DNA of 64,000 nucleotides from the NCBI GenBank assembly GCA_016783545.1, contig JADHWJ010000005.1, forward strand, positions 1,605 through 65,604, in the 5' to 3' direction. The DNA comes from Candidatus Aenigmatarchaeota archaeon. GTDB taxonomy: Archaea; Aenigmatarchaeota; Aenigmatarchaeia; QMZP01. The notes under the pieces were generated by a model. The model saw only the letters and a program-made list of their open reading frames with translations, was not told the DNA's origin and did no database searches. Positions within the stretch are counted from its first letter, which is position 1, and every line of letters starts with the position of its first letter. The position numbers were made by a program, and so were the translations under genes. Shown here one piece after another: positions 7,513-48,015 of this stretch.

Positions 7513-7540
7513 TATTAACCAACTAATCCAATTATATTCT

Positions 7541-8287
7541 ATGTTAGAAGTCTGGCTATATTCAATATTTAGTGTGATAATAATAAGCCTGATAGCATTT
7601 ATTGGCATATTTACAATATTTCTAAGGATGGAGCAGCTAAGAAAAACACTTCTTTATATGGTAAGCCTTTCTGTAGGTGCTCTATTTGGTGGTGCGTTTA
7701 TACACCTATTACCAGAAGCAGCTGAAGCCGGCTTTACAATTGAAGTAAGCCTTTATGTTCTTTCAGGTATTGTTGTTTTTTTTATAACAGAAAAACTTAT
7801 TCATTGGAGGCATTGTCATGTTCCAACATGTGAAGAGCATCCACATCCATTTGCTTATATGAACCTTGTTGGTGATGGTGTTCATAATTTTATTGATGGT
7901 CTGATTATAGCAGCTAGTTATTTAGCTGGATTACCTGTTGGCATAGCAACCACAATAGCTGTAATACTTCACGAGATACCACAAGAGATTGGGGATTTTG
8001 GTGTGCTTATACATGGTGGATTTTCAAGAAAAAAAGCACTCTGCATGAATTTCTTGACAGCGCTTGTTGCACTTGCAGGTGTTGTTATTGCTCTCATTGT
8101 AGGAGGTTTTGTTGAAGGTCTGAGTACATTCTTACTACCTTTTGCAGCAGGCGGTTTTATCTATATAGCTGGTTCAGATCTAATACCAGAACTGCATAAA
8201 AGAACATGCGAATCAAAGTCTTATTTGCAATTGGCTGCGATAGTAATTGGAATGTTTTTGATGTATCTGTTGGTCTTCTTAGAATAA
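7541..8287 (+). CDS. ZIP-family zinc/divalent metal transporter
   Basis: Multi-TM protein with HNFIDGLII and HEIPQEIGDFGVL metal-binding motifs. Confidence 0.9.
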   Translation: MLEVWLYSIFSVIIISLIAFIGIFTIFLRMEQLRKTLLYMVSLSVGALFGGAFIHLLPEAAEAGFTIEVSLYVLSGIVVFFITEKLIHWRHCHVPTCEEHPHPFAYMNLVGDGVHNFIDGLIIAASYLAGLPVGIATTIAVILHEIPQEIGDFGVLIHGGFSRKKALCMNFLTALVALAGVVIALIVGGFVEGLSTFLLPFAAGGFIYIAGSDLIPELHKRTCESKSYLQLAAIVIGMFLMYLLVFLE

Positions 8288-8318
8288 TTCTTTTATTATA
8301 AAAACATAATTATATATA

Positions 8319-11300: not shown

Positions 11301-11834
11301 GTTGATTATGACTGGTATTACTTGGATGATTATGGCGCAAAAGTTTTTGAATTTACTGAAACATTAGGATCTGATGAAACAGTTGAGAGGGATTTCTCAA
11401 TAAGCGTGAACCAGCTGGGTGAAATATATTTCCCAATCAGTGTTGATTATGGGAATGAAGTGAGCCATTCAGAAACCATAATCATCACAGCTGAATGCAA
11501 CCAGAATAGTGTTTGTGAAACAGACCTTACTGAGAATTATTTCAACTGCCCGGATTGCCTGTCTGGCTCAGAAGATGGTGTCTGCGACCTAGTAAATGAC
11601 GGGATAGTGGACCCGGATTGTATAGAAGGCTCTGATTTTGACTATGTTATAGATGCCTGTTCCGATGGGATGCTGAGTGGCGATGAAGAAGGTGTAGATT
11701 GTGGTGGTACTTGTCCTGAATGCTTACCAACTACAAAAGAAGATGTTTTAAAATCAGTGAACTTTTGGATATTGGGGGAAAAGATAATACAAGATATTAT
11801 AGAAACACTTAGGCAATGGATTGGCTGGTTCTAG
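8319..11834 (+). CDS. Giant secreted protein: Cys-rich N-terminal region, transglutaminase-like core, leucine-rich repeats, Cys-rich C-terminus
   Basis: Signal-like N-terminus. Cys/His/Asp triad pattern GTCVDYS...RHAFNIV...VVDVTGN. About six LRRs (LTNLESLYLSSNQILDIDPLKTL...). C-terminal GVDCGGTCPEC motif. Confidence 0.8.
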   Translation: MNKQVITIPVILILFIYMSLMQISAQQNPCIEIDGYAEQHRDECCGQDEDEADPAFVPEYDDCTQNQPCSKEAPCMDMKKCNPETLSCGVADDTCNKGCHKNFPEECWEAPACVDGGCLPPSESVFKENVDCTHKNNGEDISFLECEKDKGKCKKKPDGWDDKTDGEWQYCQPVPKADGTVCTVDNNPCTEDVCYNGECGKPKNVGDACKITSTETSWFAPKDIGDIDGVCTTPDMFPEPFPSIESDMVCCPDEDKDGFYDDMCGGNDCDDSMTDDPYIDCPNPSIPICAKPTASCAFCTNPNSEEICANDIDENCDGITFNGVEIITTPGDGQQLRDPKHPTTVQTLTCKATIEKTPDIEKSSLGFVFDIVTPKKSYQKIMGHDEIECSDDGTVCWADHKISQTLTRLGEDVTCSVKSYRIVNGNKEYSKSCESKLAVPICPPDAGHKKIKPEEMEVDDNGNWKDQKELFTVCAPGLVKFIDEAEDSCSSKGQSEAIYKTCLMDYILKEGLGPGAKFMRGYFAQEICCKGGDFIGPAAIYHCDTVSAFGLGDFCTAKDVPENYKPLDYDSLNCIKKEDQPNKKVWITNGPGWKTKNSCYFEHLPATSSLLVLGTDKGSGQGTGTCVDYSIAVTTLLRMGGFKPNEVYTSFIIRHAFNIVKKPGEEKFSVVDVTGNKPPYAYEKMPGDMCLIKDIMNDVKKMTLNIAENDYNLFVKGCLPEGTIVCENIKYNAVTSGGEIKLSPDSQKTLENEIKKNGDVELENIEDLKCLTSLKLKFLSISNIDPLKTLTNLESLYLSSNQILDIDPLKTLTGLRYLHLSNNQYQDDKLSNIDPLKTLTSLRHLKLNSNQISDIDPLKTLTNLEYLALYYNQISDIDPLKTLTNLKELYLYGNQISPQDCADLENYFKGKGQPVIIDGCPTTQPPITGNMITGNTIQKAAPSEIFSFEVSEPELSDSEKIYDIMITLRNPHDSETDITYFVDQLNFEMETIPNVDYDWYYLDDYGAKVFEFTETLGSDETVERDFSISVNQLGEIYFPISVDYGNEVSHSETIIITAECNQNSVCETDLTENYFNCPDCLSGSEDGVCDLVNDGIVDPDCIEGSDFDYVIDACSDGMLSGDEEGVDCGGTCPECLPTTKEDVLKSVNFWILGEKIIQDIIETLRQWIGWF
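10620..11010 (+). repeat. In-frame periodic DNA repeat encoding the LRR units
   Basis: gacccRctgaaaacNctRacaaRNctt recurs at about 10671, 10737, 10818, 10884 and 10950, a spacing of 66, 81, 66 and 66 nt. Confidence 0.8.
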
Positions 11835-12112
11835 ATATCAATACCGAACGCATTAGAGAACTCTTCAATCTTTTCAAATTCTTGCATGAACTTCTTTCCT
11901 CTTTCAGTGATTTTGTAAAGCATCCTTTCATCTTCTAGTATTTCTTCTATGAACCCCTTTTCCAAAAGAAACTCCAAGTAGCTTTTTAGCCTATCATGGG
12001 AGAGGTTTGAGCCATACATGATGTGCGTGGGCTTTGCTTGTCCACCTTTTTTAGCAATAGAATTAAGCATATCTAGAAATATTCTCATCTTGGAACGTCT
12101 TTCTGAGCTCAT
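11831..12112 (-). CDS. Winged-helix DNA-binding protein (archaeal HTH_45-like)
   Basis: 93 aa with the pattern MRIFLDMLNSIAKKGGQAKPTHIMYGSNLSHDRLKSYLEFLLEKGFIEE. Its start overlaps the stop of the upstream membrane gene by 4 nt. Confidence 0.75.
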   Translation of the reverse strand: MSSERRSKMRIFLDMLNSIAKKGGQAKPTHIMYGSNLSHDRLKSYLEFLLEKGFIEEILEDERMLYKITERGKKFMQEFEKIEEFSNAFGIDI

Positions 12113-12789
12113 AATCGCTCTAATATTGAAGGCTTTTTTCTAATTATTCTTATCAAAACAGTTAGAAGGCTGAGGAATCCCAGCACAAGTATGAAATGTG
12201 CCAGTACATATATTTCTTTGCTGAAAATGTTCAGCAATAATATAGTATGGAAAGCACCTATTGAAAGGAACGCAGCGAATACTGAAAGACTGTTATAATT
12301 CTTTGCTTGCAAAAATCCAACCCAGCTTCTAAAAACAACATATGCTATTAGGAATATGGAAAACATATGAAAGAATGGAAACATGACAAACCATAGAGGT
12401 GCAACAGAGAACATTTTCTGTTTGTAATCTTTTCTATGTAAAGGTAGATACATTAAAACAAACAATCCATATGCAACCAACGATGAGAGATAATATATGT
12501 AATATCCAAAATCAATAACATCAAAGGACTGGTCAAATAGAAGAGCATAGCAATTGTGGATGCAGGAGACTCTTAATGCAAAGAATGTATAAAATCCTGA
12601 TATACTTAGAACAAAAAACCCCATACTGAGTACAACAAAGCCCAGGTAAAGGAAAAAATGCGATCTGTTTGAAGTAAAGTTATGCATTTTAAGTGCATAG
12701 AATGCGACAGTGAAACCTATTACAGAAGCTAACAGGTATATCACTGCATCAAATCCTATGAATGAAAAGGGAACCAAAAGCTGTGGCAT
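12109..12789 (-). CDS. Polytopic membrane protein (about 7 TM), unknown function
   Basis: Seven hydrophobic segments. Translationally coupled to the wHTH gene downstream. Confidence 0.7.
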   Translation of the reverse strand: MPQLLVPFSFIGFDAVIYLLASVIGFTVAFYALKMHNFTSNRSHFFLYLGFVVLSMGFFVLSISGFYTFFALRVSCIHNCYALLFDQSFDVIDFGYYIYYLSSLVAYGLFVLMYLPLHRKDYKQKMFSVAPLWFVMFPFFHMFSIFLIAYVVFRSWVGFLQAKNYNSLSVFAAFLSIGAFHTILLLNIFSKEIYVLAHFILVLGFLSLLTVLIRIIRKKPSILERL

Positions 12790-13242
12790 GCTTTATAATT
12801 GAATGATTATTTTTTATAGTTTCAGCTCTTAAGATATAGACCTATCGTCTATATTTTTTGTTCAGATTTAGCCTTCACAAAAGAGGTTAATAAGCAAAAC
12901 AAAGTAATGATTAGAACTGTAGTCAAGAATTGCAGTCAGATGCGACTGGGGGTGAGCCAATGCCTTTTCAATATCCAGCGGTGAAATACGAGCGGTTTCC
13001 GATGATTCCAATTTTTTGGAGGAGGAAGCTGAATAGGCTTAATGCTTAAATACTTTCTTTTCTAATCATTATATAGCAAGACAAAGTGTAATAGCTTGTC
13101 TTACTTTCACAACTCATTGAACCATTTCAAAGAGAACAGCGAAACACTTATTCTTGAGTATATTGTTAGCCGAAATCTCCTCGTCTTTTGAAAGAAATTT
13201 GCATGGAATTGCAAGAACCGATTCTCTGAAAGGAGGAACAGC

Positions 13243-16984: not shown

Positions 16985-17090
16985 AGCCCCTGAGGCGATT
17001 TGAACGCCTAACCTACTGCTTACGAAGCAGTTGCTCTGGAACGCAAAACTGTGTAAAAAACAGAGTTTTGTACCGTTGAGCTACAGAGGC
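16985..17090 (-). tRNA. tRNA-Thr(CGU) with a ~34-nt intron at the D-loop/D-stem junction
   Basis: Manually assembled exons:
- Acceptor GCCTCTG/CAGGGGC (one G-U pair).
- D arm GCTC-AACGGTA[intron caaaactctgttttttacacagttttgcgttcca]GAGC.
- Anticodon arm ACTGC-TTCGTAA-GCAGT.
- T arm AGGCG-TTCAAAT-CGCCT.
- Discriminator U. Confidence 0.8.
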
Positions 17091-34941: not shown

Positions 34942-37900
34942 TTATTTGTTTTTGCTGGTATAAATAACGCTGTTATTGTTTTTCTTTTTCTTCAAAATTA
35001 TTACTAAAATCGTTATTATAACTATAGCTATAACAGTTGCAAGACCAGCAATTGTCTCTGTTCCCATGCCAAAGAACGCACCAACAGGACTTGAAAGCTC
35101 TTCTTTTGGTTCTTCAATACATGCATTGTTTTCGCATTTATAATCACAGGTTTCTACAAGAGACCATTCATATTCATCTAAACATTTTTCCAAAGAAACC
35201 CCAGAGCATCTAAGTTCATCTTCTGTACATATTTTTGGTTTTTCTTTACAGGCTTTATTTTCACAACCATATTCACAATCTTCAGAAACCTGCCAAGAGT
35301 TATTGGAGCATATGTAAAGACTCTCATCACATTTTAATTCAGATTCTGTGCAGATAACTTCGATTACAGGAGCTGCAGCAGAGCTTCCAACAGTACCACC
35401 TGCACTACCTCCTCCTACATTAGGAGTAGCAGGGGCTGCCAAAGGATTTGAACCAGCATCATATTCAGCACCATCATCTGTTCCATCTCCATCTGTATCT
35501 GCAGTAGTTGGGCTTGTTCCTAGTTCTGTCTCTAAAATTTTAACAAGGCCATCAGAATCAGTATCAGAGAAATCATCATTTGCTTCTGTAAAATTATCTG
35601 TTCCGTTCACAAAATTATTAAAGAACCAAGTAAAATTACCTCCGGTTATGTTATTCACAGCGTTTATTATATCTGTATTGTTGTATCTGGAATTATAGAA
35701 ATTTTGGTATAGATATAGCATCACATCATTAAAGCTTTTATTAGTGGTATTTGAAGTTATGTTTTTATTCCAAAGATATGTTAACACAGCACCCTTTGAA
35801 TAATAAATTGTTTTGTAATTTGCTTCACCAACAACTCCACCCGAATCACTATTTCCTGCATCTATTAGAGAGACATTTAGACTGGAATTCGTTCCTGTTG
35901 CATTATTGAATGTGTCATACCAATCGCTCAGGCAGATATAATATTGCTTTCTATTGTAAAGACTGGAATTATATCTTGCAAGGCACGAATAATATTCAGT
36001 TACACCTTCTGCGAACCATTGTTCTGAGCTACTGTTAGCAATGAAGATATCTGAATTCCATAAATGAAATATCTGATGGCTTGTTGAATGCTCAATATCA
36101 TATGGTGTTGCATATACTGAATATCCGTTGCTATCTCCGTTTAAATCACTTCCAATAAACAAAGGATAGAAAACAAGTAGTTTACTGTTCAGACTTTCAT
36201 TAAATATGTCTACGTACACAGAATAGAAATTATCAGCATATGAAGAATTTGAGAAATCAGGTAGCTCTCCTGCATTGTTTTCATAATAGTATGTATTGTT
36301 ATGATATGTTCTGTTTGCATTTGAAGGATATGCAACTGTTATATTTGTTCCATTAACCAAAGTGCTGCTTACAGTTAGGTTTCCGATTGCAATAATGGAC
36401 TCTAACCCTTTGTTTGAATATATTGAATATGTGCTATTGGTATGGTTTAATGGAATGGCTATTGTCCAGTTCTCTGGCACACTGAACACCATAGAGGTTG
36501 AAAAGTTTATGCTTCTATTTGATGGATAAAAGAAACTGGATTTTCCAATGATTAATCCATAATCCAGATCAAATGCATTTCTTCCAAGTGAGTATGAGGT
36601 ATTTGACTGATTTATTTGCGTAACATTTACGCTATATGAAACAATTGCCTGACTAAAGCTGGTTGTATTAATTACTTTGAGACTTGAATTGCCTGTCACA
36701 TTCAGTTCTGTTGAGTTATCTGTGACATTAAAACCTATTATATAATCAGGTGTTGGTATGGAAAAATTGAATTGTGATATATTCAGATTAGTTATGTTTA
36801 TAGTTACATTAAATTCTGTATCTGAGAAATTGTTTATTGTGATGTTATATAACAGATCAGGCGTATAAACTGAAAAAGAGATGTTTGAACTATTGATGTT
36901 CCCAGCAGAATCATTCGCATAAATAGTTACAACTGAAACCTGATCATCTAATGAACTGAAACTGGAATTGGAGCAGTTCTCCAAGCTTGTGCTTGTTCCA
37001 TTATATTCGTACCAGCAGGAGTCCAAATAGCTTTCATTAACTGAATAATTCAAATCTAATAATAAGGCATTATAAACATCATCTGAAGGTGAATCTATTG
37101 TTATTCTTGGAGCTGTTGTGTCAATAGTAACGATATTGGTTCCTGAGATATTTGTAACAGTGTCATTGGAACAGTTTATGTGCCATTCGTAAATAGATTC
37201 AGATATATTAAGGCTGAATACTGTTTCTATATTTAAAGAGACAGTATCATTTGTCTGGTTTAATGTATTGTTTATATAAAGGCTGCAATTAAGAGCAGAA
37301 TCTATTGCCCTGGTAGCATTAAATGAGAATAAGACTGTCTGATTGTTTGTGAAACTATTGTTTTCAGGGGAAATTAGTATTATGGATATATCTGGCTCGT
37401 TTATGGCATATGTCCAGGAGTCTGTTGAGTTTACATTCCCTGATGTGTCATTTGCATACCATTTGTAGCTATAATTTCCTAATGTAAGATTAAACATATT
37501 GTAATAGTATTCATTTCCTGTTCTGTTTTCAGCAGTATAATTTGTTCCATTGAATTCAAAGATAACAACATCTATTGTAAATGAATCTGACCAAGTGATA
37601 TTGAACTGGTAACTTTGGTTTTCAGTATATAATCCACTGGAATTTGGACTTGTTTTATTATCAGACCATAGAGGATTACCCAGATCATTGAAAATCAATG
37701 AGTATTCTTGAGGCGCCTGGGGCATACTAGTTCCGTTAACAATAACTGTATAATTACCAGAGGATGCGTTGTTGATAATAATTTGCTCTATGTTGTTAAT
37801 ACTATCATTTCCTGTTGTGGCTGGTTGTGTTAGATTGCTGAGATTTAAAATCCATGGGTAGAATCTATCACCAGTTGAATTTTCAATCCAAAGGTCTAGA

Positions 37901-39570
37901 TTATTGATAAGCTTTTTTGGTGCACTTAATGTGCCTTGATAATCTGACCAAACAAGAGTTAATTTTATCTGAGAATTGTTTTCTGAAACAAGAATAGTAT
38001 ATGTATTATTTGTTCCATCAGAAAGGCTGCCATTCTTAATAATACCTGAATAGTTCTTATCATCAATTATCTTGTTTATTGCAGCAGTTGCATTGACAAG
38101 TCCCCAGCCCATCTTAAAGTCAGGACCAGTATTATCTAAATCTTTTGCAGTATGTATAAGAATTGCTTTTACAGTTGAAGGGGTAATGTTTGCATTATTG
38201 TGCGTATTCCTATAAGACTCTACCATAAGACCTATTATACCAGAAACAACAGGAGCGGCCATGGAAGTTCCATCTAATTCTGTATATGTCTCTCCAATGT
38301 ATGTAGACTTTATATTTACACCAACAGCAACAACATCTGGCTTTATTCTTCCATCGTCTGTTGGTCCCCATGAACTGAATGATGCCATATTCTCAGAGTC
38401 ATCAACCGCACCAACAGTTATTGTATTCTTTGCGGTTGCACCAGGACCTAGGCTTGTATTGTATGTGTGACTACCTTGGGAAGCTGCACCGCAATAATAA
38501 AGTCCAAAAGAATCTGTTGTAGTTGCCCTTTCATTTCCTGCTGAAAATACAACAGTCATGGGTTTTGGAGTTGTTGTTCCCCTTACTATTTTATCATATT
38601 CTTGGGAATCAGAATCATAGTCTCCAAGCTCTGAGCAGTTGTGTACATTCCACCCCCAACTGTTTTGGGAGAGTACAGCACCATAACTTGTAATGGATTC
38701 GTTTATTTCAGTGTATGTGCTGGCCTGCGGCCAGAAATAATAGCTTACAACAGTTGCATTCGGTGACATACCTTTCCATTGAAATGCTGTTCCGCCTTTG
38801 GATTGGCTAAGACTGCCGTTACTAACCATTATTCCAGCAACATGGGTTGCATGATAATTCTCAGCTACATTATTACCTATGACCCTTCTTGCGTTATAAT
38901 CACTATGATTTGCCAGTCCGCCATCCCACATTGCAAGCGCAACACCTGCACCAGTTAGATTATAGGGATTTGCCTGTACGGTATTAACACCACATGTTGA
39001 CCTTGCACCATCATTCAATAATATTGGTATGCGTATCTCCTCTATCCATTTAACATCATCTTCTGATGCCAGCCTTTTTATCAGGTTCTCAGTTATCTGA
39101 ACGACAAAGGAATTCGAGTTTTCACTTACTACAGTACCATACTCTTCAATTGTTTCTTTTCCCCCATCAGCAAAAAGAATAACCTTTAGTTTTTTGAGTT
39201 TTTGGCTATCTGGATTTGGCTTAATTCCAGGAGATAATTTATCTTCAGGTAAAATCTCTCCAACATATGTTATATTAGGATTTTCCAAAGTCAGCTCATC
39301 AGAAACCTTTGCAATCCATGTTTTTTCTGGTATATAGTCTATAAGCAATAGGCCACTTGCTTCCATTTCCAGTTTTTCTTCGTTTGATGGTATAAAATTA
39401 AACTGAACAATATAATGATTTCCAGTCTCAATGTCAAATGGAAGTGCTTCAGTTATCTCTCTTGATTCTAATATTATGGGTTCTTTGAGCTCAGAATTAT
39501 CCTCGAGCTGTAGAGCTGGTTCTGCTAACAAAACAAATGCTATTATGGTTATTATTAATATTTTTTTCAT
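34942..39570 (-). CDS. Giant (1542 aa) membrane-anchored subtilisin-like (S8) protease with sequon-rich beta domains, a degenerate M1-like module, TSP3-like Ca-binding repeats and Cys-rich C-terminal repeats
   Basis: S8 catalytic triad contexts AMWDGG, HATHVAGIM and GTSMAAPVVSG. Dozens of NxS/T sequons. HQIFHLW...WFAEGVTEYY. DTDSDG...DTDGDGTDDGAEYD. Two CxxxELxCxxxx...C repeats. C-terminal TM helix. Confidence 0.9.
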   Translation of the reverse strand: MKKILIITIIAFVLLAEPALQLEDNSELKEPIILESREITEALPFDIETGNHYIVQFNFIPSNEEKLEMEASGLLLIDYIPEKTWIAKVSDELTLENPNITYVGEILPEDKLSPGIKPNPDSQKLKKLKVILFADGGKETIEEYGTVVSENSNSFVVQITENLIKRLASEDDVKWIEEIRIPILLNDGARSTCGVNTVQANPYNLTGAGVALAMWDGGLANHSDYNARRVIGNNVAENYHATHVAGIMVSNGSLSQSKGGTAFQWKGMSPNATVVSYYFWPQASTYTEINESITSYGAVLSQNSWGWNVHNCSELGDYDSDSQEYDKIVRGTTTPKPMTVVFSAGNERATTTDSFGLYYCGAASQGSHTYNTSLGPGATAKNTITVGAVDDSENMASFSSWGPTDDGRIKPDVVAVGVNIKSTYIGETYTELDGTSMAAPVVSGIIGLMVESYRNTHNNANITPSTVKAILIHTAKDLDNTGPDFKMGWGLVNATAAINKIIDDKNYSGIIKNGSLSDGTNNTYTILVSENNSQIKLTLVWSDYQGTLSAPKKLINNLDLWIENSTGDRFYPWILNLSNLTQPATTGNDSINNIEQIIINNASSGNYTVIVNGTSMPQAPQEYSLIFNDLGNPLWSDNKTSPNSSGLYTENQSYQFNITWSDSFTIDVVIFEFNGTNYTAENRTGNEYYYNMFNLTLGNYSYKWYANDTSGNVNSTDSWTYAINEPDISIILISPENNSFTNNQTVLFSFNATRAIDSALNCSLYINNTLNQTNDTVSLNIETVFSLNISESIYEWHINCSNDTVTNISGTNIVTIDTTAPRITIDSPSDDVYNALLLDLNYSVNESYLDSCWYEYNGTSTSLENCSNSSFSSLDDQVSVVTIYANDSAGNINSSNISFSVYTPDLLYNITINNFSDTEFNVTINITNLNISQFNFSIPTPDYIIGFNVTDNSTELNVTGNSSLKVINTTSFSQAIVSYSVNVTQINQSNTSYSLGRNAFDLDYGLIIGKSSFFYPSNRSINFSTSMVFSVPENWTIAIPLNHTNSTYSIYSNKGLESIIAIGNLTVSSTLVNGTNITVAYPSNANRTYHNNTYYYENNAGELPDFSNSSYADNFYSVYVDIFNESLNSKLLVFYPLFIGSDLNGDSNGYSVYATPYDIEHSTSHQIFHLWNSDIFIANSSSEQWFAEGVTEYYSCLARYNSSLYNRKQYYICLSDWYDTFNNATGTNSSLNVSLIDAGNSDSGGVVGEANYKTIYYSKGAVLTYLWNKNITSNTTNKSFNDVMLYLYQNFYNSRYNNTDIINAVNNITGGNFTWFFNNFVNGTDNFTEANDDFSDTDSDGLVKILETELGTSPTTADTDGDGTDDGAEYDAGSNPLAAPATPNVGGGSAGGTVGSSAAAPVIEVICTESELKCDESLYICSNNSWQVSEDCEYGCENKACKEKPKICTEDELRCSGVSLEKCLDEYEWSLVETCDYKCENNACIEEPKEELSSPVGAFFGMGTETIAGLATVIAIVIITILVIILKKKKNNNSVIYTSKNK

Positions 39571-40359: not shown

Positions 40360-42384
40360 CTAAATTATTTTAGCTTTTTTGCATTCGGTTAGAATATCAT
40401 CGGTTGTAGGGACTTTGCCATCTCTAACATATAACCCTAATCTATTAAAAAGCCTTGATACCTGATCATATTCAGACCCAGACCAGGAATGCAATAATCT
40501 ACTCAATGAACGTCCACCGTTGCAAGTTCTTAGTGCCTTTAAAAACTCTATTTTCTCTCCAGGTTCTAGATATTCTGTTGTTGCAATATCCAGAGCAAAA
40601 TCATCAGCCAATTTTTTTGTGCCTTTATCTTTAGTGTCAATTGCTCCATAGACATCATCCATAAATCCAGATTCATCAAAATATAAATCATGAGTTTCTT
40701 CGTCAGCAGAAGCTTCGGCTCTTTTTCTTTCTTCTCTAGCTCTTTTTCTTTCTTCTCTAGCCTTTCCTTCTTCCTCTAATACACTTTTAGGTGTTGGGCC
40801 ATAAGTTTCTGCTTCCAGTTCAGCACTATATCTTGCTAGTTCATCTTTATCTGCCCTATAGGTCAATAACAACTCACCATGCAGATCACCAGTATCTGTG
40901 CCAGCTCTCGCAGCCTTTAACCTCAGTTCATAGTACCTTTCTCCTGAAAGTGCTTCTCTCTGACTTTTTGGAGTTCCGAACATTTTTCTTGGTTTTGGAT
41001 TCTCGTATTCAGTCTTTTTCAATAGTTCAGCAACATGTGTCAATATTCTTTTGGATTTCTCTAAGAACCATTTTTCATATTTTCTATATTGTCTTTCTGT
41101 AACTCCAATAGCATTTTTTCCTCTAAGACTCTTTTCTCTGATATCCTTTTCATCAATGATCCTATCATTATAATCAGGAGGCGGTTCTCCCAATGACACT
41201 GCAAAATGAAGTTGATCTTGACCTGGTATTGCACGAAATGTATCTTTCCATTCATCAAAGGTTCTGGTATCTTGATCTAAGCTAAATAAATCCAAAAACA
41301 TTGGAGATCCGTCATCTTTTACATATCTAAATCTTTCAACTTTTTTTGGAAAATAAGGTCTTTCTGATTCAGCTATAAGAGCTACTGCAAAAAGAATATT
41401 TTCAAAACCCGATTCTTTAAGACTCTCTTTCAATCTAACTGACATTTTTTCTTCTACACAGCTGTAGTTGACTATAACATTTCCATCGGATACTATTCTA
41501 GATAATTCTCTTCCTAAAAAATAAGGATCTAAATCTTCATGTCTTATATAATGACAAAGTTCTGGAGATATGTCTCTAAGAGTTCTAATCTCACCTGAAT
41601 CTTTATCCAAAAAGAAATATACATCTCTTAAAAGATTACTAGAGTACGTCCTTAAACATCTTTTAGTTTCTCTAGCCGTCTCTTCTGATTCTAATCTCTT
41701 CATAAATTTATCCCAGTCATCTTCAAAATCATCACTACCTATCACTTGGTATCCAGGATCAAGTTGAAAAATTCTTGGTATATACATATTGCTCTTTCCA
41801 CGTCCAAGAATTTTCAGAACAAATCTTGTTATTCCAATATCTTTATACTCTTCCATATCCATATCAATCTCTTCAAGAAATCTTGCAATTATTCTTCTGC
41901 GAGGTTCATAATCATCACCAGCCCTTTCTTCGTCTTCATTCATCCAGACTTCGAGTCTATCTGCTTGTTCTGGGCTCAATGATCTTGTATAATTAAATAA
42001 TACATCATCATCCTCTTCTTCCCCATGAAAATTAGTCAGAAATAATCCTTTTTGGCTTAAAAGCTGTCTTCCTGCTATTATTGTTAGTGATCTTAAAGCA
42101 TCATCGTCAAGCTGCTGTTCATAATCAAAGCTTATTATATCAAACCTATCATCAGTCTGTCTGAAAAAATCTACAGGATTTCCTTCTATCCCAACTATAT
42201 TCCCTCTTGGAATTCCCAGAGGATCATATACCTCAGAAATCTCTTCTTCTCCAGGAAAGCACGCAACCTTTAATCGCTTAGGTGATTTTCCTAGCCATTT
42301 CATTTGACTACTAAAGAAGCGTAGCTGCTCCTTTCTTGCTAATTCTTTGATTTTTGTGTCATAACTATTCATATTTACCACCAA
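40360..42384 (-). CDS. Operon gene 6: 674-aa protein with an N-terminal degenerate Rossmann/methyltransferase-like domain
   Basis: LKVACFPGEEE (motif I-like), IVGIEGNPVD (motif II-like), RFDIISFDYEQQLDDD (motif IV-like), LFLTNFHG. This domain is paralogous to the C-terminal domain of 44030..45385. Contains the duplicated AREERKR heptad. Confidence 0.8.
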   Translation of the reverse strand: MVVNMNSYDTKIKELARKEQLRFFSSQMKWLGKSPKRLKVACFPGEEEISEVYDPLGIPRGNIVGIEGNPVDFFRQTDDRFDIISFDYEQQLDDDALRSLTIIAGRQLLSQKGLFLTNFHGEEEDDDVLFNYTRSLSPEQADRLEVWMNEDEERAGDDYEPRRRIIARFLEEIDMDMEEYKDIGITRFVLKILGRGKSNMYIPRIFQLDPGYQVIGSDDFEDDWDKFMKRLESEETARETKRCLRTYSSNLLRDVYFFLDKDSGEIRTLRDISPELCHYIRHEDLDPYFLGRELSRIVSDGNVIVNYSCVEEKMSVRLKESLKESGFENILFAVALIAESERPYFPKKVERFRYVKDDGSPMFLDLFSLDQDTRTFDEWKDTFRAIPGQDQLHFAVSLGEPPPDYNDRIIDEKDIREKSLRGKNAIGVTERQYRKYEKWFLEKSKRILTHVAELLKKTEYENPKPRKMFGTPKSQREALSGERYYELRLKAARAGTDTGDLHGELLLTYRADKDELARYSAELEAETYGPTPKSVLEEEGKAREERKRAREERKRAEASADEETHDLYFDESGFMDDVYGAIDTKDKGTKKLADDFALDIATTEYLEPGEKIEFLKALRTCNGGRSLSRLLHSWSGSEYDQVSRLFNRLGLYVRDGKVPTTDDILTECKKAKII
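40720..40761 (-). repeat. Perfect 21-nt tandem duplication inside operon gene 6
   Basis: tctttttctttcttctctagc occurs twice (40720-40740 and 40741-40761). It encodes the duplicated heptad within ...REERKRAREERKRA... Confidence 0.9.
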
Positions 42385-42441
42385 ATAGTGAATTTTGGAA
42401 AGTTCTACTTAAAAATCAATATCTAATGACTATGAAATATT

Positions 42442-43584
42442 CTATAATTGGCAATGACATGTTGGCTTTTTTCTGTCAAGTTCCAGGCCAACCGCAGTCC
42501 ACATATCATCTGTTTCTTTACAGAGGCCAATACTAATATCACCTTCTGCCCTCTCTCTTATACAATCAACAATATGTCTGTATAAATCCACTCTTATGTC
42601 ATCCCTATATCTATATCTATGGTCTTCATCAGGATCATCAGAAAGCAAATCATCATCAAATAACACTGTATTTGGGAATCTTTGTGTTGCTGATGCTCTT
42701 ATTGTTGGATGAAATCTCAATGAACCCATTGTTACTCTTTCTGGTCTAAGATCCCTAAAAACAGCATCCATCATTCTATTGTATCTCTTCTTCCAGTCCC
42801 CCCTTCTCCATTCTTTTCCACTTAAAAGAAGTAATGGGTCAAATCTCAGTCTCAAAGGATATCCAGCTTCTTGGGCCTTTTTAGCCGCTCCTATTCTTCT
42901 ATATAAAGGGGCTGTATCAAGTTCAATATTCCTTGTCACATGGTCAGAGTTTATGCTCCATGAAACAATTGTGTGTTCATTGTGTTCTAAGTCTAGTAAA
43001 TTATCAACACAATCACTCTTTGATAAAAGCAAAAGCCTTGCATCTTTTCTAGCAAAAAACGGAACCAAAATTCTTGTTAATGGATAAATATAATCAAAAG
43101 CTAGGCTATCCTGGTTTTCACCCATATGATAGACCTGTGTTCCTAAAACAGCCCTTTCTGCAATATCCCTATCAATCTCTTTTAAAAGTTTTTCCCAATT
43201 TAAATTAAACTTTACTCTTGGATGTCTTCCCCTATACGTTCCTTGCATAAAGCAATACTGGCAAGAATAATGGCAGCCATTTGAAATTGGTATTATCTTT
43301 CTTGGGCCCTTGCAATAATGAACAGGTTGACCTTTCGAAGGTGAAATAAATTTTTGAGCTTCTCCTAAGACTAGAGTTTTCTTTCCCCAGTCAACTAAGC
43401 TACCAATTTCCCTATCTTCTAAATCATCTCCAAAGCCATCTTGACTATCAGTAACTTCTATATGCGCATCTGGATACCTTTCCCTAACATTTTCAGTGAC
43501 TTCATGATACTCATAGCCTTTTAGTACAAATATCCTCTCTGGTCTATAATTATCTATGGTTTGTTTTCTTGTCATATTTTTCAC
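42442..43584 (-). CDS. Operon gene 5: radical SAM enzyme, spore-photoproduct-lyase/COG1533-like
   Basis: CxxxCxxC motif in ISNGCHYSCQYCFMQGTYRG. 380 aa. The overall layout resembles the SplB-like DNA photolyase family. Confidence 0.8.
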   Translation of the reverse strand: MKNMTRKQTIDNYRPERIFVLKGYEYHEVTENVRERYPDAHIEVTDSQDGFGDDLEDREIGSLVDWGKKTLVLGEAQKFISPSKGQPVHYCKGPRKIIPISNGCHYSCQYCFMQGTYRGRHPRVKFNLNWEKLLKEIDRDIAERAVLGTQVYHMGENQDSLAFDYIYPLTRILVPFFARKDARLLLLSKSDCVDNLLDLEHNEHTIVSWSINSDHVTRNIELDTAPLYRRIGAAKKAQEAGYPLRLRFDPLLLLSGKEWRRGDWKKRYNRMMDAVFRDLRPERVTMGSLRFHPTIRASATQRFPNTVLFDDDLLSDDPDEDHRYRYRDDIRVDLYRHIVDCIRERAEGDISIGLCKETDDMWTAVGLELDRKKPTCHCQL

Positions 43585-44037
43585 CTAGTATATTACCTCT
43601 CCATTAGGGTTCCATATTATTGTTGATGGTGAAGTACAACCTCCTCCCTCTTCAATCACATATTCTAATGTCTGGTCTCTATATTCATCTGTTTCAAGCA
43701 ATTCTTTTGCATCTTCTTCCATTGCATCTAACATTTCTGGTGGAAAGGACATTCTTTCTTCGTTTTCTCTATTAACATCTTCATCTGTTAATCTAACTCT
43801 TGCACTTCCGCCATGACCCATTCCATATATGCAAAAATCTCTTTCACTATCTCTAGTTATCACAACCGCAAAATCTGGAGCCTGTCCTTTGTAGACATGT
43901 CCGTGCGAAGTTATGATGGAATGTGCCTCTTCTCTTTGAATCCATTCCAAGAAATCAGCAAGAGTGGTGTCTTCAGGATGATCAGTATAAAGCCTGACCA
44001 GATCAGGAACCTCTGCTAAAGGAATTTTATCACTCAT
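43585..44037 (-). CDS. Operon gene 4: 150-aa His-rich acidic protein, unknown function
   Basis: HSIITSHGHVYKG...GMGHGGSARV. Abuts the radical SAM gene start and overlaps the upstream gene by 8 nt. Confidence 0.7.
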   Translation of the reverse strand: MSDKIPLAEVPDLVRLYTDHPEDTTLADFLEWIQREEAHSIITSHGHVYKGQAPDFAVVITRDSERDFCIYGMGHGGSARVRLTDEDVNRENEERMSFPPEMLDAMEEDAKELLETDEYRDQTLEYVIEEGGGCTSPSTIIWNPNGEVIY

Positions 44038-45385
44038 TTTTTACCCCCTTACTCAAACTTACTGGAACTGAAATTCCAGATTTTCTTTTTTCAAATCTGA
44101 AACCCAATGTTTCCATATCACTAGTATCTGCATATTGTGATTCTGTTTCACTTAAAATCACTTCACAATCAAAATCATGTTCTGCACATCTTTCTTCAAT
44201 AAACCCAAGGCATGTTACTTCTTGATCTGTTGTTTCATAGCCTGCTACTTTACTACCCCTTCCTCTTTCGAATCTTGCTATCTCTAATGCTGATGTGTTC
44301 AATGTTACAAATACAACCGCAGGATCATCAAGATGATCATTTTCAAAGAGATTTCTAATTGCTCTTTCTTTGTCAGGACCCCAGGAACTCAGATAATCAA
44401 GCCAGACAAAATTAAACTTGCCATCTTTTATGCCTCTTTTACCAAGGGCTCTGTCCATAAATCCTTCATATAATCTTAATCCTTGGAACATTTCCCCACC
44501 ATCAATTATGTCCCAGTGTCTTATTATTGACTGCATTATATTTGCTTCTTTTCTTCCTCTCTCAACAGCTATACTTTGCTCAGGATCGATTCCAAACCTT
44601 TCATGTAATAGTACATAGTCAATAAAATTAACAGCAGGCATGCCCAGATATCTCAGGTTCCTCGGATTTGATAGATTCTTTCTCACAGCATCACATATAA
44701 GATCTCTATCATATTGCTTTCCTTCTCTTTCTCCTCCTCCTCCTCCATAGAATACGGCATCAAGTATTGGTTGGGTTGTTATGGCATCAACAGAGCCTAG
44801 ATTATCTGCAACCCAGCCTCCATCTAAAAGACCAGAATCCAGAAGAAAACTCTCCATCACAGCCTTTTTGTATGGTTTTCCAAGCTTGCTCACAATATCT
44901 CTGATTATAAGCCTATGTGGTGTTTCACCACCTTTCTGCCTTTGTATCTCAGCGCTGTTTGCATGTTCTTTATCCTCTTCAAGGAAGAATTTTTTTATTG
45001 GTTCATAATTATCCTTTATCTTTTTTGCTCTTACATCCTTTCCAAAATTATGCCAATGTCCATTATAATCAGCTTTTATTTCTTCTGATCTTGGGATATA
45101 ATAACCATTCCATCTTCCACCATATTCATCTACTAGAGAGTTCCACTCCTCTTCTGTAAATTTTGGGCCAAGTATATTTTCAAAAGTAGTACCTATTTCT
45201 AGTAATTTTCCTTTTGTAGGTTTTTTTGGTTCTTCAGGAACCTCAGTTTCAAAGACATATTGTCCAGCTTTTATCTTATATTTTCTATTTCCGTCATACA
45301 TTTCTTTAAGCAAATCCATGATAGGAAGTCCAAATTCAATTGCTGTTTCACCCAGTGAAACGTATCTACTTGGCATTTTATTCAT
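44030..45385 (-). CDS. Operon gene 3: 451-aa protein with an N-terminal excisionase-type HTH and a C-terminal degenerate methyltransferase-like domain
   Basis: RYVSLGETAIEFGLPIMDLLKEMYDGNRKYKIKAGQYVF (HTH_17-like). LRYLGMPAVNF, IAVERGRKE, LYEGFMDRAL and FNFVWLDYLSSWG (MTase motif I-IV-like order). Confidence 0.8.
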   Translation of the reverse strand: MNKMPSRYVSLGETAIEFGLPIMDLLKEMYDGNRKYKIKAGQYVFETEVPEEPKKPTKGKLLEIGTTFENILGPKFTEEEWNSLVDEYGGRWNGYYIPRSEEIKADYNGHWHNFGKDVRAKKIKDNYEPIKKFFLEEDKEHANSAEIQRQKGGETPHRLIIRDIVSKLGKPYKKAVMESFLLDSGLLDGGWVADNLGSVDAITTQPILDAVFYGGGGGEREGKQYDRDLICDAVRKNLSNPRNLRYLGMPAVNFIDYVLLHERFGIDPEQSIAVERGRKEANIMQSIIRHWDIIDGGEMFQGLRLYEGFMDRALGKRGIKDGKFNFVWLDYLSSWGPDKERAIRNLFENDHLDDPAVVFVTLNTSALEIARFERGRGSKVAGYETTDQEVTCLGFIEERCAEHDFDCEVILSETESQYADTSDMETLGFRFEKRKSGISVPVSLSKGVKNE

Positions 45386-46406
45386 CTCCTTTGAAAGTTT
45401 GCATTTTCATAACATCTTCACGAAGGTATATTTTAGCTTTACGTGCTCCAGTATGAGTTTTTATTTTACCATCAATATAGGTCACACCAGCTCCTTTTAC
45501 CAATTTACGGAAGTCAGCCATCACTTCTTTTGGATATTTGCCTCTCTCATCTTTTTCAGCACCAGGGAATAGATATTTCAAGACATCTCCCTGGGAGAAT
45601 GCTTCTGCCTGGGTATATATCTTTTCGTTGAGTCTTGTAGCTAATTCAGGTATCGGTTCTGTTGTTGGACTTGTTTCCAAAAGAGGATAATCAATATCTG
45701 AAACAACAACAAAACTAAGGTTTGCTTCATCAGGCCATCTTGGGTTTCCAGTTCTTAATCTATCTGACAGTTCTCTTCTTATTTCATCCCTATCAAGTTT
45801 AGATTTTTCTGCAGATATTCTCACATAACCATCAGTTTCTTCTGGTAAACTTATTTTGAATCCAGCAGATTCAGAAGTTGCCATGCAATACTCTAATAAA
45901 TTCAACATTAGACTGGGGTTTGCTTCAATATCTTCAAAAAGTATTGTTGGCAAAAGATATACCACTTCATCCATTTCTAGAATAAAAACACCAGCTTCTT
46001 TTCTTTGTTCTAGAGAGCTTCTCCTTTCAGCGGCTTCAAGAGTCCTTTCATATGCTGTTTTTGTTTCTTGAGCTTCAGTATAACTTTCATCTAAGGCTGC
46101 TTTTACTTTTGGCTTCAGGGATTCAAGGGCTGTTTCTTCATATTCAGTTATAAATTCTATGGCATCTTTTCCATCAGCTTCTAATTCAGTTGTCAATTCC
46201 TTTATATCAGAACCTGATAAAGAAGCAAATGTTTCATTTCTCTCGTGGAGAGCCTGTGCCATATCTTTTGAAACTTGAATTAATCTTGAATGTAACTCAG
46301 TGTCATATTCACTCAATAACATATCTACTCTTTCTCTATATTCAGAACTAAGATTTCCTAGAGTCGTTCCTATACCAGAATCTTCCTTGTGTTCATATTG
46401 AGACAT
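45378..46406 (-). CDS. Operon gene 2: 342-aa acidic protein, unknown function
   Basis: Long acidic helical N-terminal half. The C-terminal segment IYTQAEAF...IYLREDVMKM may be HTH-like. 8-nt overlap with gene 3. Confidence 0.75.
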   Translation of the reverse strand: MSQYEHKEDSGIGTTLGNLSSEYRERVDMLLSEYDTELHSRLIQVSKDMAQALHERNETFASLSGSDIKELTTELEADGKDAIEFITEYEETALESLKPKVKAALDESYTEAQETKTAYERTLEAAERRSSLEQRKEAGVFILEMDEVVYLLPTILFEDIEANPSLMLNLLEYCMATSESAGFKISLPEETDGYVRISAEKSKLDRDEIRRELSDRLRTGNPRWPDEANLSFVVVSDIDYPLLETSPTTEPIPELATRLNEKIYTQAEAFSQGDVLKYLFPGAEKDERGKYPKEVMADFRKLVKGAGVTYIDGKIKTHTGARKAKIYLREDVMKMQTFKGDE

Positions 46407-46414
46407 ATTATCAC

Positions 46415-47053
46415 CTATTCAGCAACAAGATCATCTACTTCTTTTGTGGAATAAAGCACATCTCGACCTCTATTTCCTAATTTTTTGATTTTTCCTGTTT
46501 TTGACATATGTGCAAGTGCACCAGCACCAATACCAAGCTTAGATCTTACCTGTTCCCCTGTATATACAGATTCTCCTTCATAGTCTACTGATTCACCAGC
46601 TAGTTTATCTACGTCTTCTACATCATAGTATGTGTGTTTCCCGTCATTTCCTAGTTTTCTAACCTGCTTTTTCATTGTGAGCCATGCAAGGCTTGCTGCA
46701 TTAATACCGAGCCTAGTTCTTATATGTTCCCCTGTATATGCAGGATTTCCCTTGTATTCTACTGCTCCATCTGGTATATCAGCAGTTCTTTCTGATATAT
46801 CAGCAGTTTCAGCTTCTGGGATTACTGGCCTTTTTGGGCTATCAGCAGGTATTTCTGCTAATTCCATTGAAAGTTCTGTTGAAAGCTTTGTTAGTCTTTC
46901 TTTCATACCATTTAATTCTGTGTATTCTGCTCCTAATTCTTGTAGATATCCTTTAAGACTTCCAACACCACTTGTTAATCTAGATGCTGCTGCTTCTATT
47001 TCATCTAAGGCATCTGATACTTGTTTTAAATAGTTAGGCATATTTACCTCCAT
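46415..47053 (-). CDS. Operon gene 1: coiled-coil protein with two tandem excisionase/MerR-type HTH (HTH_17-like) repeats
   Basis: Repeat 1: YKGNPAYTGEHIRTRLGINAASLAWLTMKKQVRKLGNDGKHTYYDVEDVDKL. Repeat 2: YEGESVYTGEQVRSKLGIGAGALAHMSKTGKIKKLGNRGRDVLYSTKEVDDL. Confidence 0.75.
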   Translation of the reverse strand: MEVNMPNYLKQVSDALDEIEAAASRLTSGVGSLKGYLQELGAEYTELNGMKERLTKLSTELSMELAEIPADSPKRPVIPEAETADISERTADIPDGAVEYKGNPAYTGEHIRTRLGINAASLAWLTMKKQVRKLGNDGKHTYYDVEDVDKLAGESVDYEGESVYTGEQVRSKLGIGAGALAHMSKTGKIKKLGNRGRDVLYSTKEVDDLVAE

Positions 47054-47208
47054 TATCCTATAAATTAGAGGTATATTATTTAAAGTTTACTATTGAAGAA
47101 TAGTCGCATATTGCCGATTTTATGGTTAATTGAGAATATGAGCCAGATCTTAAGATAGACCAGTTCTTTTTATATAATAATTTATTTCTTGAAATTAAAA
47201 AGATAGAT

Positions 47209-48015
47209 ATGAGTATTCAGAAAAACATACCAATAATAATTATCCTTATACCCCTTATACTATTCGGAATCACTATGACTCCTAATCCTGAGGGACAGAA
47301 TCTTACAGGAATGAATACTAATCTTGTTTCCCGTGTAATAGATGGGGATACAGTTGAGCTTGGAAATAGTGAAAGGGTAAGACTTCTTGGAATAGACACA
47401 CCAGAAAGGGGCCAGTTCCTGTTCAAGGAATCAACTGAATGGCTCAAAGACAAAATAGAAGGAAAGAGAGTTAGGCTGGAGTCAGATATCGAAGATAAGG
47501 ACAAATATGATAGGCTTCTAAGGCATATCTTCTTGGGAAATGAGCATATTAATCTGAAATTAGTTGAACTGGGTTATGCGAATACGCTTTTCTATGGGAA
47601 TGAAAAATACAGAGAAGAACTTTTAGCAGCAGAAGCAGAAGCAAGGGATAAAGGAACAGGTATATGGCATTTTAACAGGAACCTATTTTGTATAGGTATA
47701 TTCCAATTGCATTATAATGCAAAAGGGGATGATAATGAAAACCTTAATGATGAGTATGTTATTCTCAGGAACAAGTGCGAAAATCCGGTCAGTATGGACA
47801 AATGGCTATTGAAAGATGAATCCGGCATAATGTATGAGTTCAAAAACCTTTTAGTGAAAGCAAAAGCTAAATTTACTTTACATACAGGGCAGGGTAATGA
47901 TAACGAAACAGATATCTATTGGAATAGGGCAAGGGCTGTCTGGAATAATAATGGGGATATATTGAAAGTATGGAATGCTAATAGAGAACCTGTTTTAGAG
48001 TACCAATATCCATAG
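47209..48015 (+). CDS. Membrane-anchored or secreted staphylococcal-nuclease-like thermonuclease fused to a lamin-tail domain
   Basis: N-terminal TM/signal segment. SNase motifs VIDGDTVEL and RVRLLGIDTPE. C-terminal LTD-like EYVILRNKCENPVSMDKWLLKDESG. Confidence 0.85.
   Translation: MSIQKNIPIIIILIPLILFGITMTPNPEGQNLTGMNTNLVSRVIDGDTVELGNSERVRLLGIDTPERGQFLFKESTEWLKDKIEGKRVRLESDIEDKDKYDRLLRHIFLGNEHINLKLVELGYANTLFYGNEKYREELLAAEAEARDKGTGIWHFNRNLFCIGIFQLHYNAKGDDNENLNDEYVILRNKCENPVSMDKWLLKDESGIMYEFKNLLVKAKAKFTLHTGQGNDNETDIYWNRARAVWNNNGDILKVWNANREPVLEYQYP

Follow-up and report, generated by a model that had tools for sequence, protein, structure and literature searches.

A conserved cassette of a spore photoproduct lyase-like radical SAM enzyme, a methyltransferase-fold partner and putative DNA-binding proteins in an Aenigmarchaeota genome

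Introduction

To our knowledge, radical S-adenosylmethionine (SAM) enzymes with the fold of spore photoproduct lyase (SPL) have only two known activities on DNA, namely the repair of the spore photoproduct and one step of a phage hypermodification pathway. In SPL, Tyr98 is strictly conserved, and the position of the Clostridium residue Cys77, which corresponds to Ser76 of Geobacillus thermodenitrificans, lies 4.2 Å from the lesion in the Geobacillus structure (PMC3467042). The phage enzyme, gp53 of phage M6, is an SPL-like radical SAM isomerase that acts on a base within DNA in a pathway of thymidine hypermodification, and its authors reported 13% identity to SPL (PMC8989533). Here we analyse a cluster of six genes (g1 to g6) that encodes an SPL-like radical SAM enzyme together with methyltransferase-like and helix-turn-helix (HTH) proteins. 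The cluster is located at positions 40,360 to 47,053 of a stretch of 64,000 nucleotides, hereafter the window, taken from a metagenome-assembled genome (MAG) with the source name Candidatus Aenigmarchaeota (assembly GCA_016783545.1, contig JADHWJ010000005.1, positions 1,605 to 65,604). Four of its genes, g1, g2, g3 and g5, form a cassette that is both conserved and very patchy in its distribution, and for which we tentatively favour a role in DNA modification.

Two uncharacterised families are also relevant for comparison: the methyltransferase-like family PF20553 (Methyltransf_35, annotated as a putative O-methyltransferase) and TcmP, the three-Cys-motif partner protein (NCBIfam TIGR04474), which is encoded beside relatives of g5. 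No functional studies on PF20553, TcmP or SPL-like systems were found in the literature. Judged from its proteins, the cassette is akin to an uncharacterised kind of system that combines an SPL-like radical SAM enzyme with a methyltransferase-like partner, and it falls outside SPL proper and outside the TcmP family.

Results

Conservation and distribution of the cassette

An initial annotation of the window, made from the sequence without database searches, described six co-oriented genes on the minus strand, all of which are present in the list of open reading frames (ORFs). The coordinates and lengths given here are those of the longest ORF of each gene.

46415-47053, minus strand: g1, 212 aa, coiled-coil protein with two HTH_17-like repeats
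45378-46406, minus strand: g2, 342 aa, protein with a helical N-terminus and a conserved central block
44030-45385, minus strand: g3, 451 aa, protein with an HTH module and a methyltransferase-like domain
43585-44037, minus strand: g4, 150 aa, acidic protein
42442-43584, minus strand: g5, 380 aa, SPL-like radical SAM enzyme
40360-42384, minus strand: g6, 674 aa, protein with a methyltransferase-fold domain

The six genes had been regarded as a single unit, and this view held for g1, g2, g3 and g5, whose order is conserved, whereas g4 and g6 are local additions, g4 having no relatives and g6 having its closest relative at a site with no cassette beside it. The order g1-g2-g3-g5 was also observed in three other loci: L001, a contig of 10.8 kb with g1-like, g2-like, g3-like and SPL-like genes in succession; L006, which is the same locus as L008 and comes from an unclassified archaeal MAG; and L007. 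It occurs as well on a Joint Genome Institute (JGI) contig, where the four-gene order was read from gene sizes alone. In all, this order was seen on five contigs besides that of the window, and the g3-g5 pair on a sixth. In another locus that is truncated upstream (L074), a g3 homologue (E 1e-129) overlaps the SPL-like gene by 4 nt, and a g3 homologue stands directly upstream of the SPL-like gene in L001, L006/L008, L007 and L074 without exception. The co-occurrence of these families in other genomes, which the initial annotation had proposed to examine, was confirmed in that they recur together on other contigs.

Across the cassettes, the identity to the window copies is 55-66% for g5 and only 29-40% for g1 to g3, the GC content of the contigs ranges from 28 to 46%, and the flanking genes differ at every instance. 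In L001 an AbiEi/AbiEii pair is found one gene away from the cassette, and an ATP-dependent DNA ligase gene comes after one of the cassettes. Of 185,579 species-representative genomes, only one carried a cassette of this type, an occurrence that fits an accessory rather than a housekeeping role. None of the 56 further loci with g5 relatives of 24-41% identity carries g1, g2 or g3, and a relative with 45% identity is solitary, located beside an archaeal RNA polymerase operon and AspRS. In searches with g3 itself, a single relative was detectable (40% identity), on L001; word-index homologue searches with g3, as a single sequence or as a profile, returned only g3 itself and one relative. Metagenome scans with g3 patterns returned nothing, and those with tight g5 patterns returned only a contig of 1.6 kb.

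The radical SAM enzyme g5

The assignment of g5 to the SPL-like radical SAM enzymes in the initial annotation agrees with its match to PF20903 (105.6 bits; cut-off 27), and the three cysteines of the CxxxCxxC cluster (C104, C108 and C111) are present and invariant. The scores are below the equivalog cut-offs, with 107.1 bits against 400 for TIGR04070 and 67.8 bits against 437 for TIGR03886. In the PDB, g5 has no relatives other than SPL structures, with E values of 6e-19 for the single sequence and 3.5e-37 for the profile. With a score of 107 bits where 400 are required, g5 is, on sequence criteria, not a true SPL. At the position of the Bacillus-type hydrogen donor (Cys140/141), g5 carries Glu156.

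Nevertheless, the enzyme shares several features with SPL (SplB; PF20903/TIGR04070; structures 4FHC and 4RH0 of Geobacillus thermodenitrificans), including the family itself, a CxxxCxxC motif whose third Cys is preceded by a Tyr, a conserved (K/R)YxYRD segment and a Cys at the Clostridium-type hydrogen-donor position. This invariant Cys91 aligns, at the sequence level, with the engineered Cys76 of the S76C variant of SPL (4rh0), which is the position of the Clostridium Cys77. Tyr96 of SPL is also kept in g5. The differences comprise an overall identity of about 25-30%, the Glu in place of Cys140, a Phe in place of Tyr98 and an extra, invariant trio of cysteines. The Phe (Phe112) is found in all cassette-type proteins, and more distant relatives have Tyr, Ile or Val at the same position. 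The cysteines of the trio (C355, C376 and C378) are invariant in the clade and common in more distant relatives; in the profile alignment, coverage of the solved SPL chain stops about 20 residues short of its C-terminus, at a point well upstream of C355, and no counterpart of the trio is evident. Moreover, SPL acts alone, whereas g5 is always encoded with a methyltransferase-fold partner and HTH proteins, and in non-sporulating archaea.

Three further ideas on g5 were considered and abandoned. A second [4Fe-4S] site formed by C91 and the C-terminal cysteine trio was set aside, given that C91 is better explained as a Clostridium-type hydrogen donor. Conservation of the SPL beta-hairpin residues Arg304/Tyr305 is not claimed; the profile alignment places the RYRYRD segment of g5 on KYVYRDE of SPL. 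The archaeosine enzyme RaSEA was dropped as a relative of g5, as no evidence for it was found.

Phage M6 gp53 resembles g5 in being an SPL-like radical SAM enzyme; as it makes a modification instead of repairing damage, it is a precedent for the use of this fold in DNA modification. The phage pathway differs from the cassette in requiring 5-hydroxymethyldeoxyuridine (5-hmdU), the 5-HMUDK kinase, aGPT-Pplase and a pyridoxal phosphate (PLP) decarboxylase. For these three enzymes there was no Pfam match in g1 to g6 or in the two flanking genes, and none in the pre-computed Pfam calls of the related loci.

The methyltransferase-like domain of g3 and g6

The g3 protein starts with a winged HTH of the excisionase/MerR type and ends in a Rossmann domain that is methyltransferase-like, and the region between them is similar to the homing-endonuclease-associated repeat. 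At the N-terminus, a low-confidence model displays HTH topology with a weak match to BldC (probability 0.93 over 47 columns, E 1.2). The C-terminal domain matches PF20553 over residues 220-368 with 35.5 bits, which passes the cut-off of 27, and covers model positions 11-145 of 309 only; a match to PF20553 (E <= 1) was obtained for two of the four members of the g3 family. The motifs YLG(M/L)P(S/A)xNF, AVE, FLD(Y/F) and TLN are conserved in this family, and its profile gave nothing significant against the PDB sequences.

Three domains can be distinguished in g6: an N-terminal methyltransferase-fold domain (residues ~10-130, with the motifs CFPGxE, GIE, DFF and LDY), a middle alpha/beta domain and a helical C-terminus. 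The protein had no match in Pfam, NCBIfam, PHROGs or PADLOC (hereafter the four databases), and Pfam recognised the shared domain in none of the 43 family members scanned. Its family comprises about 300 clusters, with 308 relatives in an exhaustive search (124 of them below 1e-10), and the sampled members come, by source name, from Aenigmarchaeota and Woesearchaeota MAGs, that is, from DPANN archaea.

No similarity between g3 and g6 was detected by BLASTP, nor by hhalign of the g3-family profile against the single g6 sequence. Homology surfaced only when the g6-family profile was used (probability 85.7%, E 5.5e-6), aligning residues 7-150 of g6 with residues 212-369 of g3 with the motifs in register, and the hidden Markov model (HMM) of the g6 family also detects two g3 homologues. 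Besides, the AlphaFold model of g6, built on an alignment of 120 sequences, reached a predicted local distance difference test score (pLDDT) of 84.1 and a predicted template-modelling score (pTM) of 0.74, with a pLDDT of 93-98 for residues 10-130. All of the 50 best matches of this model in the PDB were class I SAM methyltransferases, with probabilities up to 0.99 and E values of only 0.03-0.2, and they include the RsmD-like structures 2ift and 2fpo (probability 0.99), TrmR and MnmM; the search against BFVD had the same outcome. The profile comparison and the confident g6 model therefore support the common methyltransferase-fold domain that had been proposed for g3 and g6, the fold of g3 resting on its homology to g6 and on PF20553. 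The term paralogous, also applied to this pair, is appropriate as a statement of distant homology of one domain, and does not extend beyond it.

The description of these domains as degenerate methyltransferases was misleading. Motif I, the acidic residue after strand 2 and the LDY of motif IV, although unusual, are invariant or nearly so within each family, and this conservation points to a working pocket of an atypical kind rather than to decay. In comparison with PF20553 and class I methyltransferases such as RsmD, g3 scores above the Pfam cut-off, and the homologous domain of g6 resembles them in its class I fold, with an acidic residue following strand 2 and a motif IV that bears an Asp; by contrast, g3 covers the first half of the PF20553 model, lacks GxGxG and has no sequence relative in the PDB.

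The g6 gene begins 57 nt downstream of g5, possibly under a promoter of its own, and adjoins the cassette only in this window. None of the other cassette loci yielded a g6 relative. Its nearest relative (35% identity) adjoins FtsY with no cassette, and four other members of its family were found in unrelated contexts from which the cassette is absent, so that g6 does not belong stably to the cassette.

Two other members of the g6 family are worth recording. A protein of 1002 aa (P0061; L066, positions 3891-6899) consists of a g6-family protein fused to a C-terminal Radical_SAM domain (residues 767-942, 30.3 bits), with an unusual CxxxCxxxC spacing, weak similarity to the g5 family (hhalign E 3e-4) and an IS-type transposase nearby. 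This fusion offers a modest hint that g6-type domains may work with radical SAM enzymes. In another Aenigmarchaeota MAG (L067, positions 5431-9320), a g6-family protein of 439 aa is encoded on the same strand after an HTH_3 protein and a protein of 577 aa, the latter with a weak GHKL/HATPase_c_3 match (22.5 bits, under the cut-off), and the three genes may form a system of their own, centred on this Rossmann domain.

The proteins g1, g2 and g4

The four-gene core is led by g1, in which an N-terminal helical or coiled-coil segment is followed by two tandem HTH_17-like repeats of 58 aa. The tandem repeats had been noticed in the initial annotation and are evident in both DNA and protein, as positions 46511-46602 and 46685-46776 are 72% identical and the two 58-aa units align. 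One unit matched HTH_17 with an E value of 7.9e-5 and 23.3 bits, below the Pfam cut-off of 27, and weak HTH matches were obtained in PADLOC (mad1, 1.4e-4; AbiEi, 2.8e-3). The g1-family HMM detects the first gene of L001, L006/L008 and L007, and the homologue in L001 is also found by BLASTP (2e-14). The true start of g1 is likely the ATG at 47041, which is preceded by GGAGGT.

A motif, QLxA(Y)(K/R)AHxTMGxYG, is strongly conserved and often duplicated inside HTH-like modules of the g1 homologues (L001 1443-2162, L006 1135-1668 and L007 99-746) and of the C-termini of many g6-family proteins (e.g., P0029 and P0033); it is degenerate in the g1 and g6 of the window.

Between a helical N-terminus and a variable C-terminus, the g2 protein carries a central block marked by the signature NPSLMLNLLEYC. 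It is 36% identical to its counterpart in L001 (E 3e-51), and homologues hold the same position in L001, L006 and L007. No match was obtained for g2 in the four databases, and the g2-family profile gave nothing significant against the PDB. The L001 homologue has HTH_17/MerR modules in its C-terminus, the HTH_17 match (1.1e-5) being confined to one family member; HTH segments had also been suggested for the C-termini of g2 and g6, and among the proteins of the window these found no significant support.

Inserted between g3 and g5, g4 is lineage-specific and outside the conserved core, with no family match in the four databases and no homologue in any fetched locus. It had been called His-rich, but it contains five His in 150 aa (3.3%) and is actually strongly acidic, with a pI of 4.3.

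Related radical SAM enzymes and their partners

Among 57 loci with g5 relatives of 24-41% identity, 16 also encode TcmP; in 15 of these the two genes are adjacent, and in the remaining locus they lie within 5 kb of each other. These neighbours match TIGR04474 with 64-151 bits (cut-off 53). The TcmP protein is of the Rossmann methyltransferase-like type, and its FAGxG and DPxG motifs are canonical. The radical SAM enzymes associated with it belong to the g5 clade, in which C91, the GE at positions 155-156, C355 and a C-terminal CxC are conserved. The pairs were seen in Thermoproteota, Asgard archaea, Chloroflexota and Ignavibacteria, frequently in restriction-modification (RM) or prophage settings, and their neighbours include an MmeI-like RM enzyme, a ResIII helicase, ParB_N proteins, an SPP1-type portal indicative of a prophage and the EVE modified-base reader domain. 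These pairs are similar to the cassette in joining an SPL-like radical SAM enzyme of the g5 clade to an adjacent, uncharacterised Rossmann methyltransferase-like protein, and differ from it in lacking g1 and g2, in keeping FAGxG/DPxG and in a partner that matches TIGR04474, which neither g3 nor g6 did at E <= 0.1. For TcmP and the g6 family, hhalign gave no more than a weak suggestion of homology (7.6%, E 0.0046), the motifs being in register.

In Desulfobulbia, a fixed order of a family-2 glycosyltransferase, an SPL-like radical SAM enzyme, SSB (149 bits) and a DnaJ/CbpA-type protein was found at L013 (positions 9112-12890) and about nine other loci, which suggests that this subclade may have a chromosomal, DNA-related role.

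Other contexts of the clade were recorded on their own account. In L055 (positions 4071-13146) and L056, which belong to Nitrososphaerota and Desulfurococcaceae MAGs, the SPL-like gene has on one side an MmeI-like RM enzyme of about 1070 aa and on the other a ResIII/DEAD helicase, with a TcmP gene 4.6 kb upstream in L055; both look like an uncharacterised restriction or defence island. The sole contig classified as viral with a g5 relative (L065; IMG/VR UViG_3300031673_016560; 32% identity) has the same neighbours as L010, a contig of a Sedimentisphaerales MAG, and is probably either a prophage or a misclassified cellular contig.

Comparison with known systems and surroundings of the cluster

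The initial annotation recognised no named system, and indeed none was matched by the cluster in the four databases, although a close analogue, the pair of SPL-like radical SAM enzyme and TcmP, had been left unnamed. Against PADLOC-DB 2.0, only the weak HTH-type matches of g1 were obtained, and none for g3, g5 or g6. The suggestion that the cluster is cargo of a mobile element received no support from composition, repeats, gene content or searches of phages and plasmids. The cluster does not deviate in GC content or in tetranucleotide composition (z of the latter -0.8 to +1.0), no repeats flank it in the window, and Pfam and PHROGs scans revealed no integrase, capsid or replication genes among its proteins. 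No match to g3 was found by tblastn in the phage and plasmid collections, and the only g5 relative in IMG/VR has no g1, g2 or g3 beside it.

The junctions between the longest ORFs are as first described, with overlaps of 8 nt at 45378-45385 and 44030-44037, abutting ends at 43584/43585 and gaps of 8 and 57 nt. Starts are placed later in the deposited gene calls (208 aa for g1, 448 for g3, 377 for g5 and 670 for g6), and with these the g2/g3 overlap becomes a gap of 1 nt and the g4/g5 abutment a gap of 9 nt. Of the translational coupling that had been deduced from these junctions, the tight packing stands under either set of starts, whereas the g2/g3 overlap and the g4/g5 abutment depend on the longest ORFs. 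The peptides that had been quoted from these proteins (NGCHYSCQYCFMQG, YLGMPAVNF, LDYLSSW, VACFPGEEE and FDYEQQL) were all found.

Upstream of g1, the sequence was read directly in the following region.

47054-47208: intergenic region shared with a divergent nuclease gene

On the minus strand, 19-31 nt upstream of the first g1 ATG, it contains an A/T-rich, TATA-like stretch, TTTAAATAATATA (~47072-47084), which might serve as a candidate archaeal promoter for the cluster. The divergent gene (47209-48015, plus strand) encodes a nuclease in which SNase and lamin-tail domains are preceded by a hydrophobic, signal-like segment at the N-terminus, and matches the PADLOC candidate model C3a212 'SNc+LTD' (E 1.4e-21). 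This secreted nuclease, to which the initial annotation drew attention, neighbours the cassette here only; it is absent from every other instance and was rejected as a component of the system.

Just downstream of the cluster, past two small ORFs, a minus-strand ORF (34942-39570) encodes a predicted surface protein of 1542 aa that has a subtilisin (S8) domain and a C-terminal membrane anchor and is very rich in N-x-S/T sequons. Elsewhere in the window, on the minus strand at 16985-17090, Rfam identified a tRNA of 106 nt (56.6 bits) that ARAGORN missed and that is probably an intron-containing archaeal tRNA.

Discussion

As the initial annotation had recognised, the cluster brings together an SPL-family radical SAM enzyme, methyltransferase-fold proteins and HTH modules. 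We favour the reading of g1-g2-g3-g5 as a DNA-directed base-modification module, although this is a tentative choice that may well prove wrong. We infer that the cassette acts on duplex DNA because it carries excisionase/MerR-type HTH modules, because SPL and gp53 act on DNA and because relatives are found in restriction, prophage, ParB, EVE and SSB contexts. Modification appears more likely than repair, since an obligate partner and a patchy distribution are unlike what is seen in a stand-alone repair enzyme.

The DNA substrate, the physical complex, the order of the steps and the chemistry that we infer are as follows. The proteins g1 and g2 and the N-terminus of g3 would bind duplex DNA via their HTH modules and would assemble there through coiled-coil segments. 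The Rossmann domain of g3, with its atypical conserved pocket, may bind SAM or a related nucleotide cofactor and would prepare or present the target base. Reductive cleavage of SAM by g5 would take place on the [4Fe-4S] cluster bound by CxxxCxxC, and the resulting 5'-deoxyadenosyl radical would take a hydrogen from a flipped-out base, probably a pyrimidine. Hydrogen returned from Cys91 would close the reaction, as in the Clostridium-type SPL, and a carbon-linked group would thereby be installed, rearranged or removed. A more specific proposal, which we consider possible and rather doubtful, is that of a four-subunit machine in which an SPL-type lyase, a Rossmann partner devoid of the glycine loop and two DNA-binding subunits would write a so far unknown carbon-linked modification onto bases of the chromosomal DNA in DPANN archaea, or erase it from them. 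Such a machine would be the most elaborate of a wider class of SPL-like enzymes with methyltransferase-fold partners, which includes the TcmP pairs of archaea, Chloroflexota and prophages.

Several observations weigh against a base-modification module. The retained hydrogen-donor Cys is equally expected of a repair lyase, and the HTH modules could be plain transcription regulators. The putative binding of SAM has to be set against the absence of the glycine-rich GxGxG motif, motif I being CFPGxE among g6-family proteins and YLG(M/L)P(S/A)xNF among those of the g3 family. In addition, the model of g3, derived from two sequences, reached a pLDDT of 47.7, with a catalytic domain too poor for use, and the fold search with it was set aside except for the N-terminal BldC match. 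The conflict-related context stems from relatives of 24-41% identity whose partner, TcmP, shows no demonstrable homology to g3 (0.3% against the g3 family by hhalign). Moreover, no nuclease, kinase, glycosyltransferase or base-exchange enzyme is conserved with the cassette, and its neighbours in the window are housekeeping genes (FtsZ, FKBP, P-type ATPase and S8 peptidase).

The retained hydrogen-donor Cys keeps DNA repair a serious rival, even if we judge it unlikely. In a repair lyase complex, g5 would split the spore photoproduct or a related methylene-bridged or alkyl pyrimidine lesion, with g1 to g3 searching and recruiting and the methyltransferase fold only flipping and holding bases. 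This would agree with SPL being the sole characterised family matched by g5, with the filled and invariant Clostridium-type donor position and the kept Tyr96, with the SSB gene adjoining the Desulfobulbia relatives and with the DNA ligase gene that follows one cassette. However, g5 falls short of the equivalog cut-off (107 bits against 400), has a Phe for the strictly conserved Tyr98 of SPL and carries the invariant C355/C376/C378 trio without a counterpart in the solved SPL; besides, known SPLs act singly, so that the obligate methyltransferase-fold partner would be unaccounted for, and neither an extremely patchy spread nor relatives in restriction and prophage contexts are typical of a repair enzyme. 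A distinctly unlikely explanation is a system of self/non-self conflict, in defence or anti-defence, in which the cassette would mark host or element DNA for a separately encoded or unrecognised effector to read, or would be carried by an unrecognised DPANN mobile element to escape host restriction. No nuclease or other effector is conserved with the cassette, the PADLOC matches are weak and of HTH type only, the window is without compositional anomaly, repeats or integrase, and g3 has no phage or plasmid relatives, the sole IMG/VR relative of g5 (32%) being without g1 to g3. The arguments for such a conflict system come from the SPL-like/TcmP pairs beside the MmeI-like RM enzyme, ResIII helicase, EVE domain, ParB_N proteins and phage portal, from the AbiEi/AbiEii pair near the L001 cassette and from a sporadic distribution with different flanks each time.

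Substrates other than DNA are less likely. Modification of tRNA or rRNA by a radical SAM enzyme and a Rossmann partner, comparable to many archaeal pairs of radical SAM enzymes and methyltransferases, would suit the RNA methyltransferases among the best fold matches of the g6 domain (the RsmD-like 2ift and 2fpo at 0.99, TrmR and MnmM) and the solitary 45%-identical g5 relative beside the RNA polymerase operon and AspRS. We nonetheless hold it to be very improbable, as modules of the HTH_17/MerR/excisionase type bind duplex DNA, housekeeping RNA modification genes are less rare and less patchy, and both of the nearest characterised relatives of g5 act on DNA. Least probable of all, and in our view extremely so, is the maturation of a protein or peptide of the RiPP type (a peptide made by the ribosome and modified after translation), in which g5 would modify g1 or g4 and the HTH-like repeats would be substrate motifs. 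Its basis would be the recurrence of (A/L)xxY(K/R)AHxTMG in g1 homologues and g6-family C-termini, but this motif lies within modules that match HTH_17 or HTH_23 and is degenerate in the g1 and g6 of the window; furthermore, g4 is not conserved, and neither a SPASM or twitch domain nor a RiPP-recognition element was found in g5 with Pfam and NCBIfam.

Taken together, the evidence points to a broad and unstudied SPL-like clade that is nearly always accompanied by a methyltransferase-fold partner, in archaea, bacteria and prophages, and of which the DPANN cassette is a four-protein elaboration. Should this clade write a DNA mark, it would represent a new chemical class of epigenetic or protective DNA modification, and a function would be gained for TcmP as well as for a family of about 300 clusters without Pfam coverage, whose named members are DPANN archaea. 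Should it repair DNA instead, radical DNA repair would be extended beyond the spore formers.

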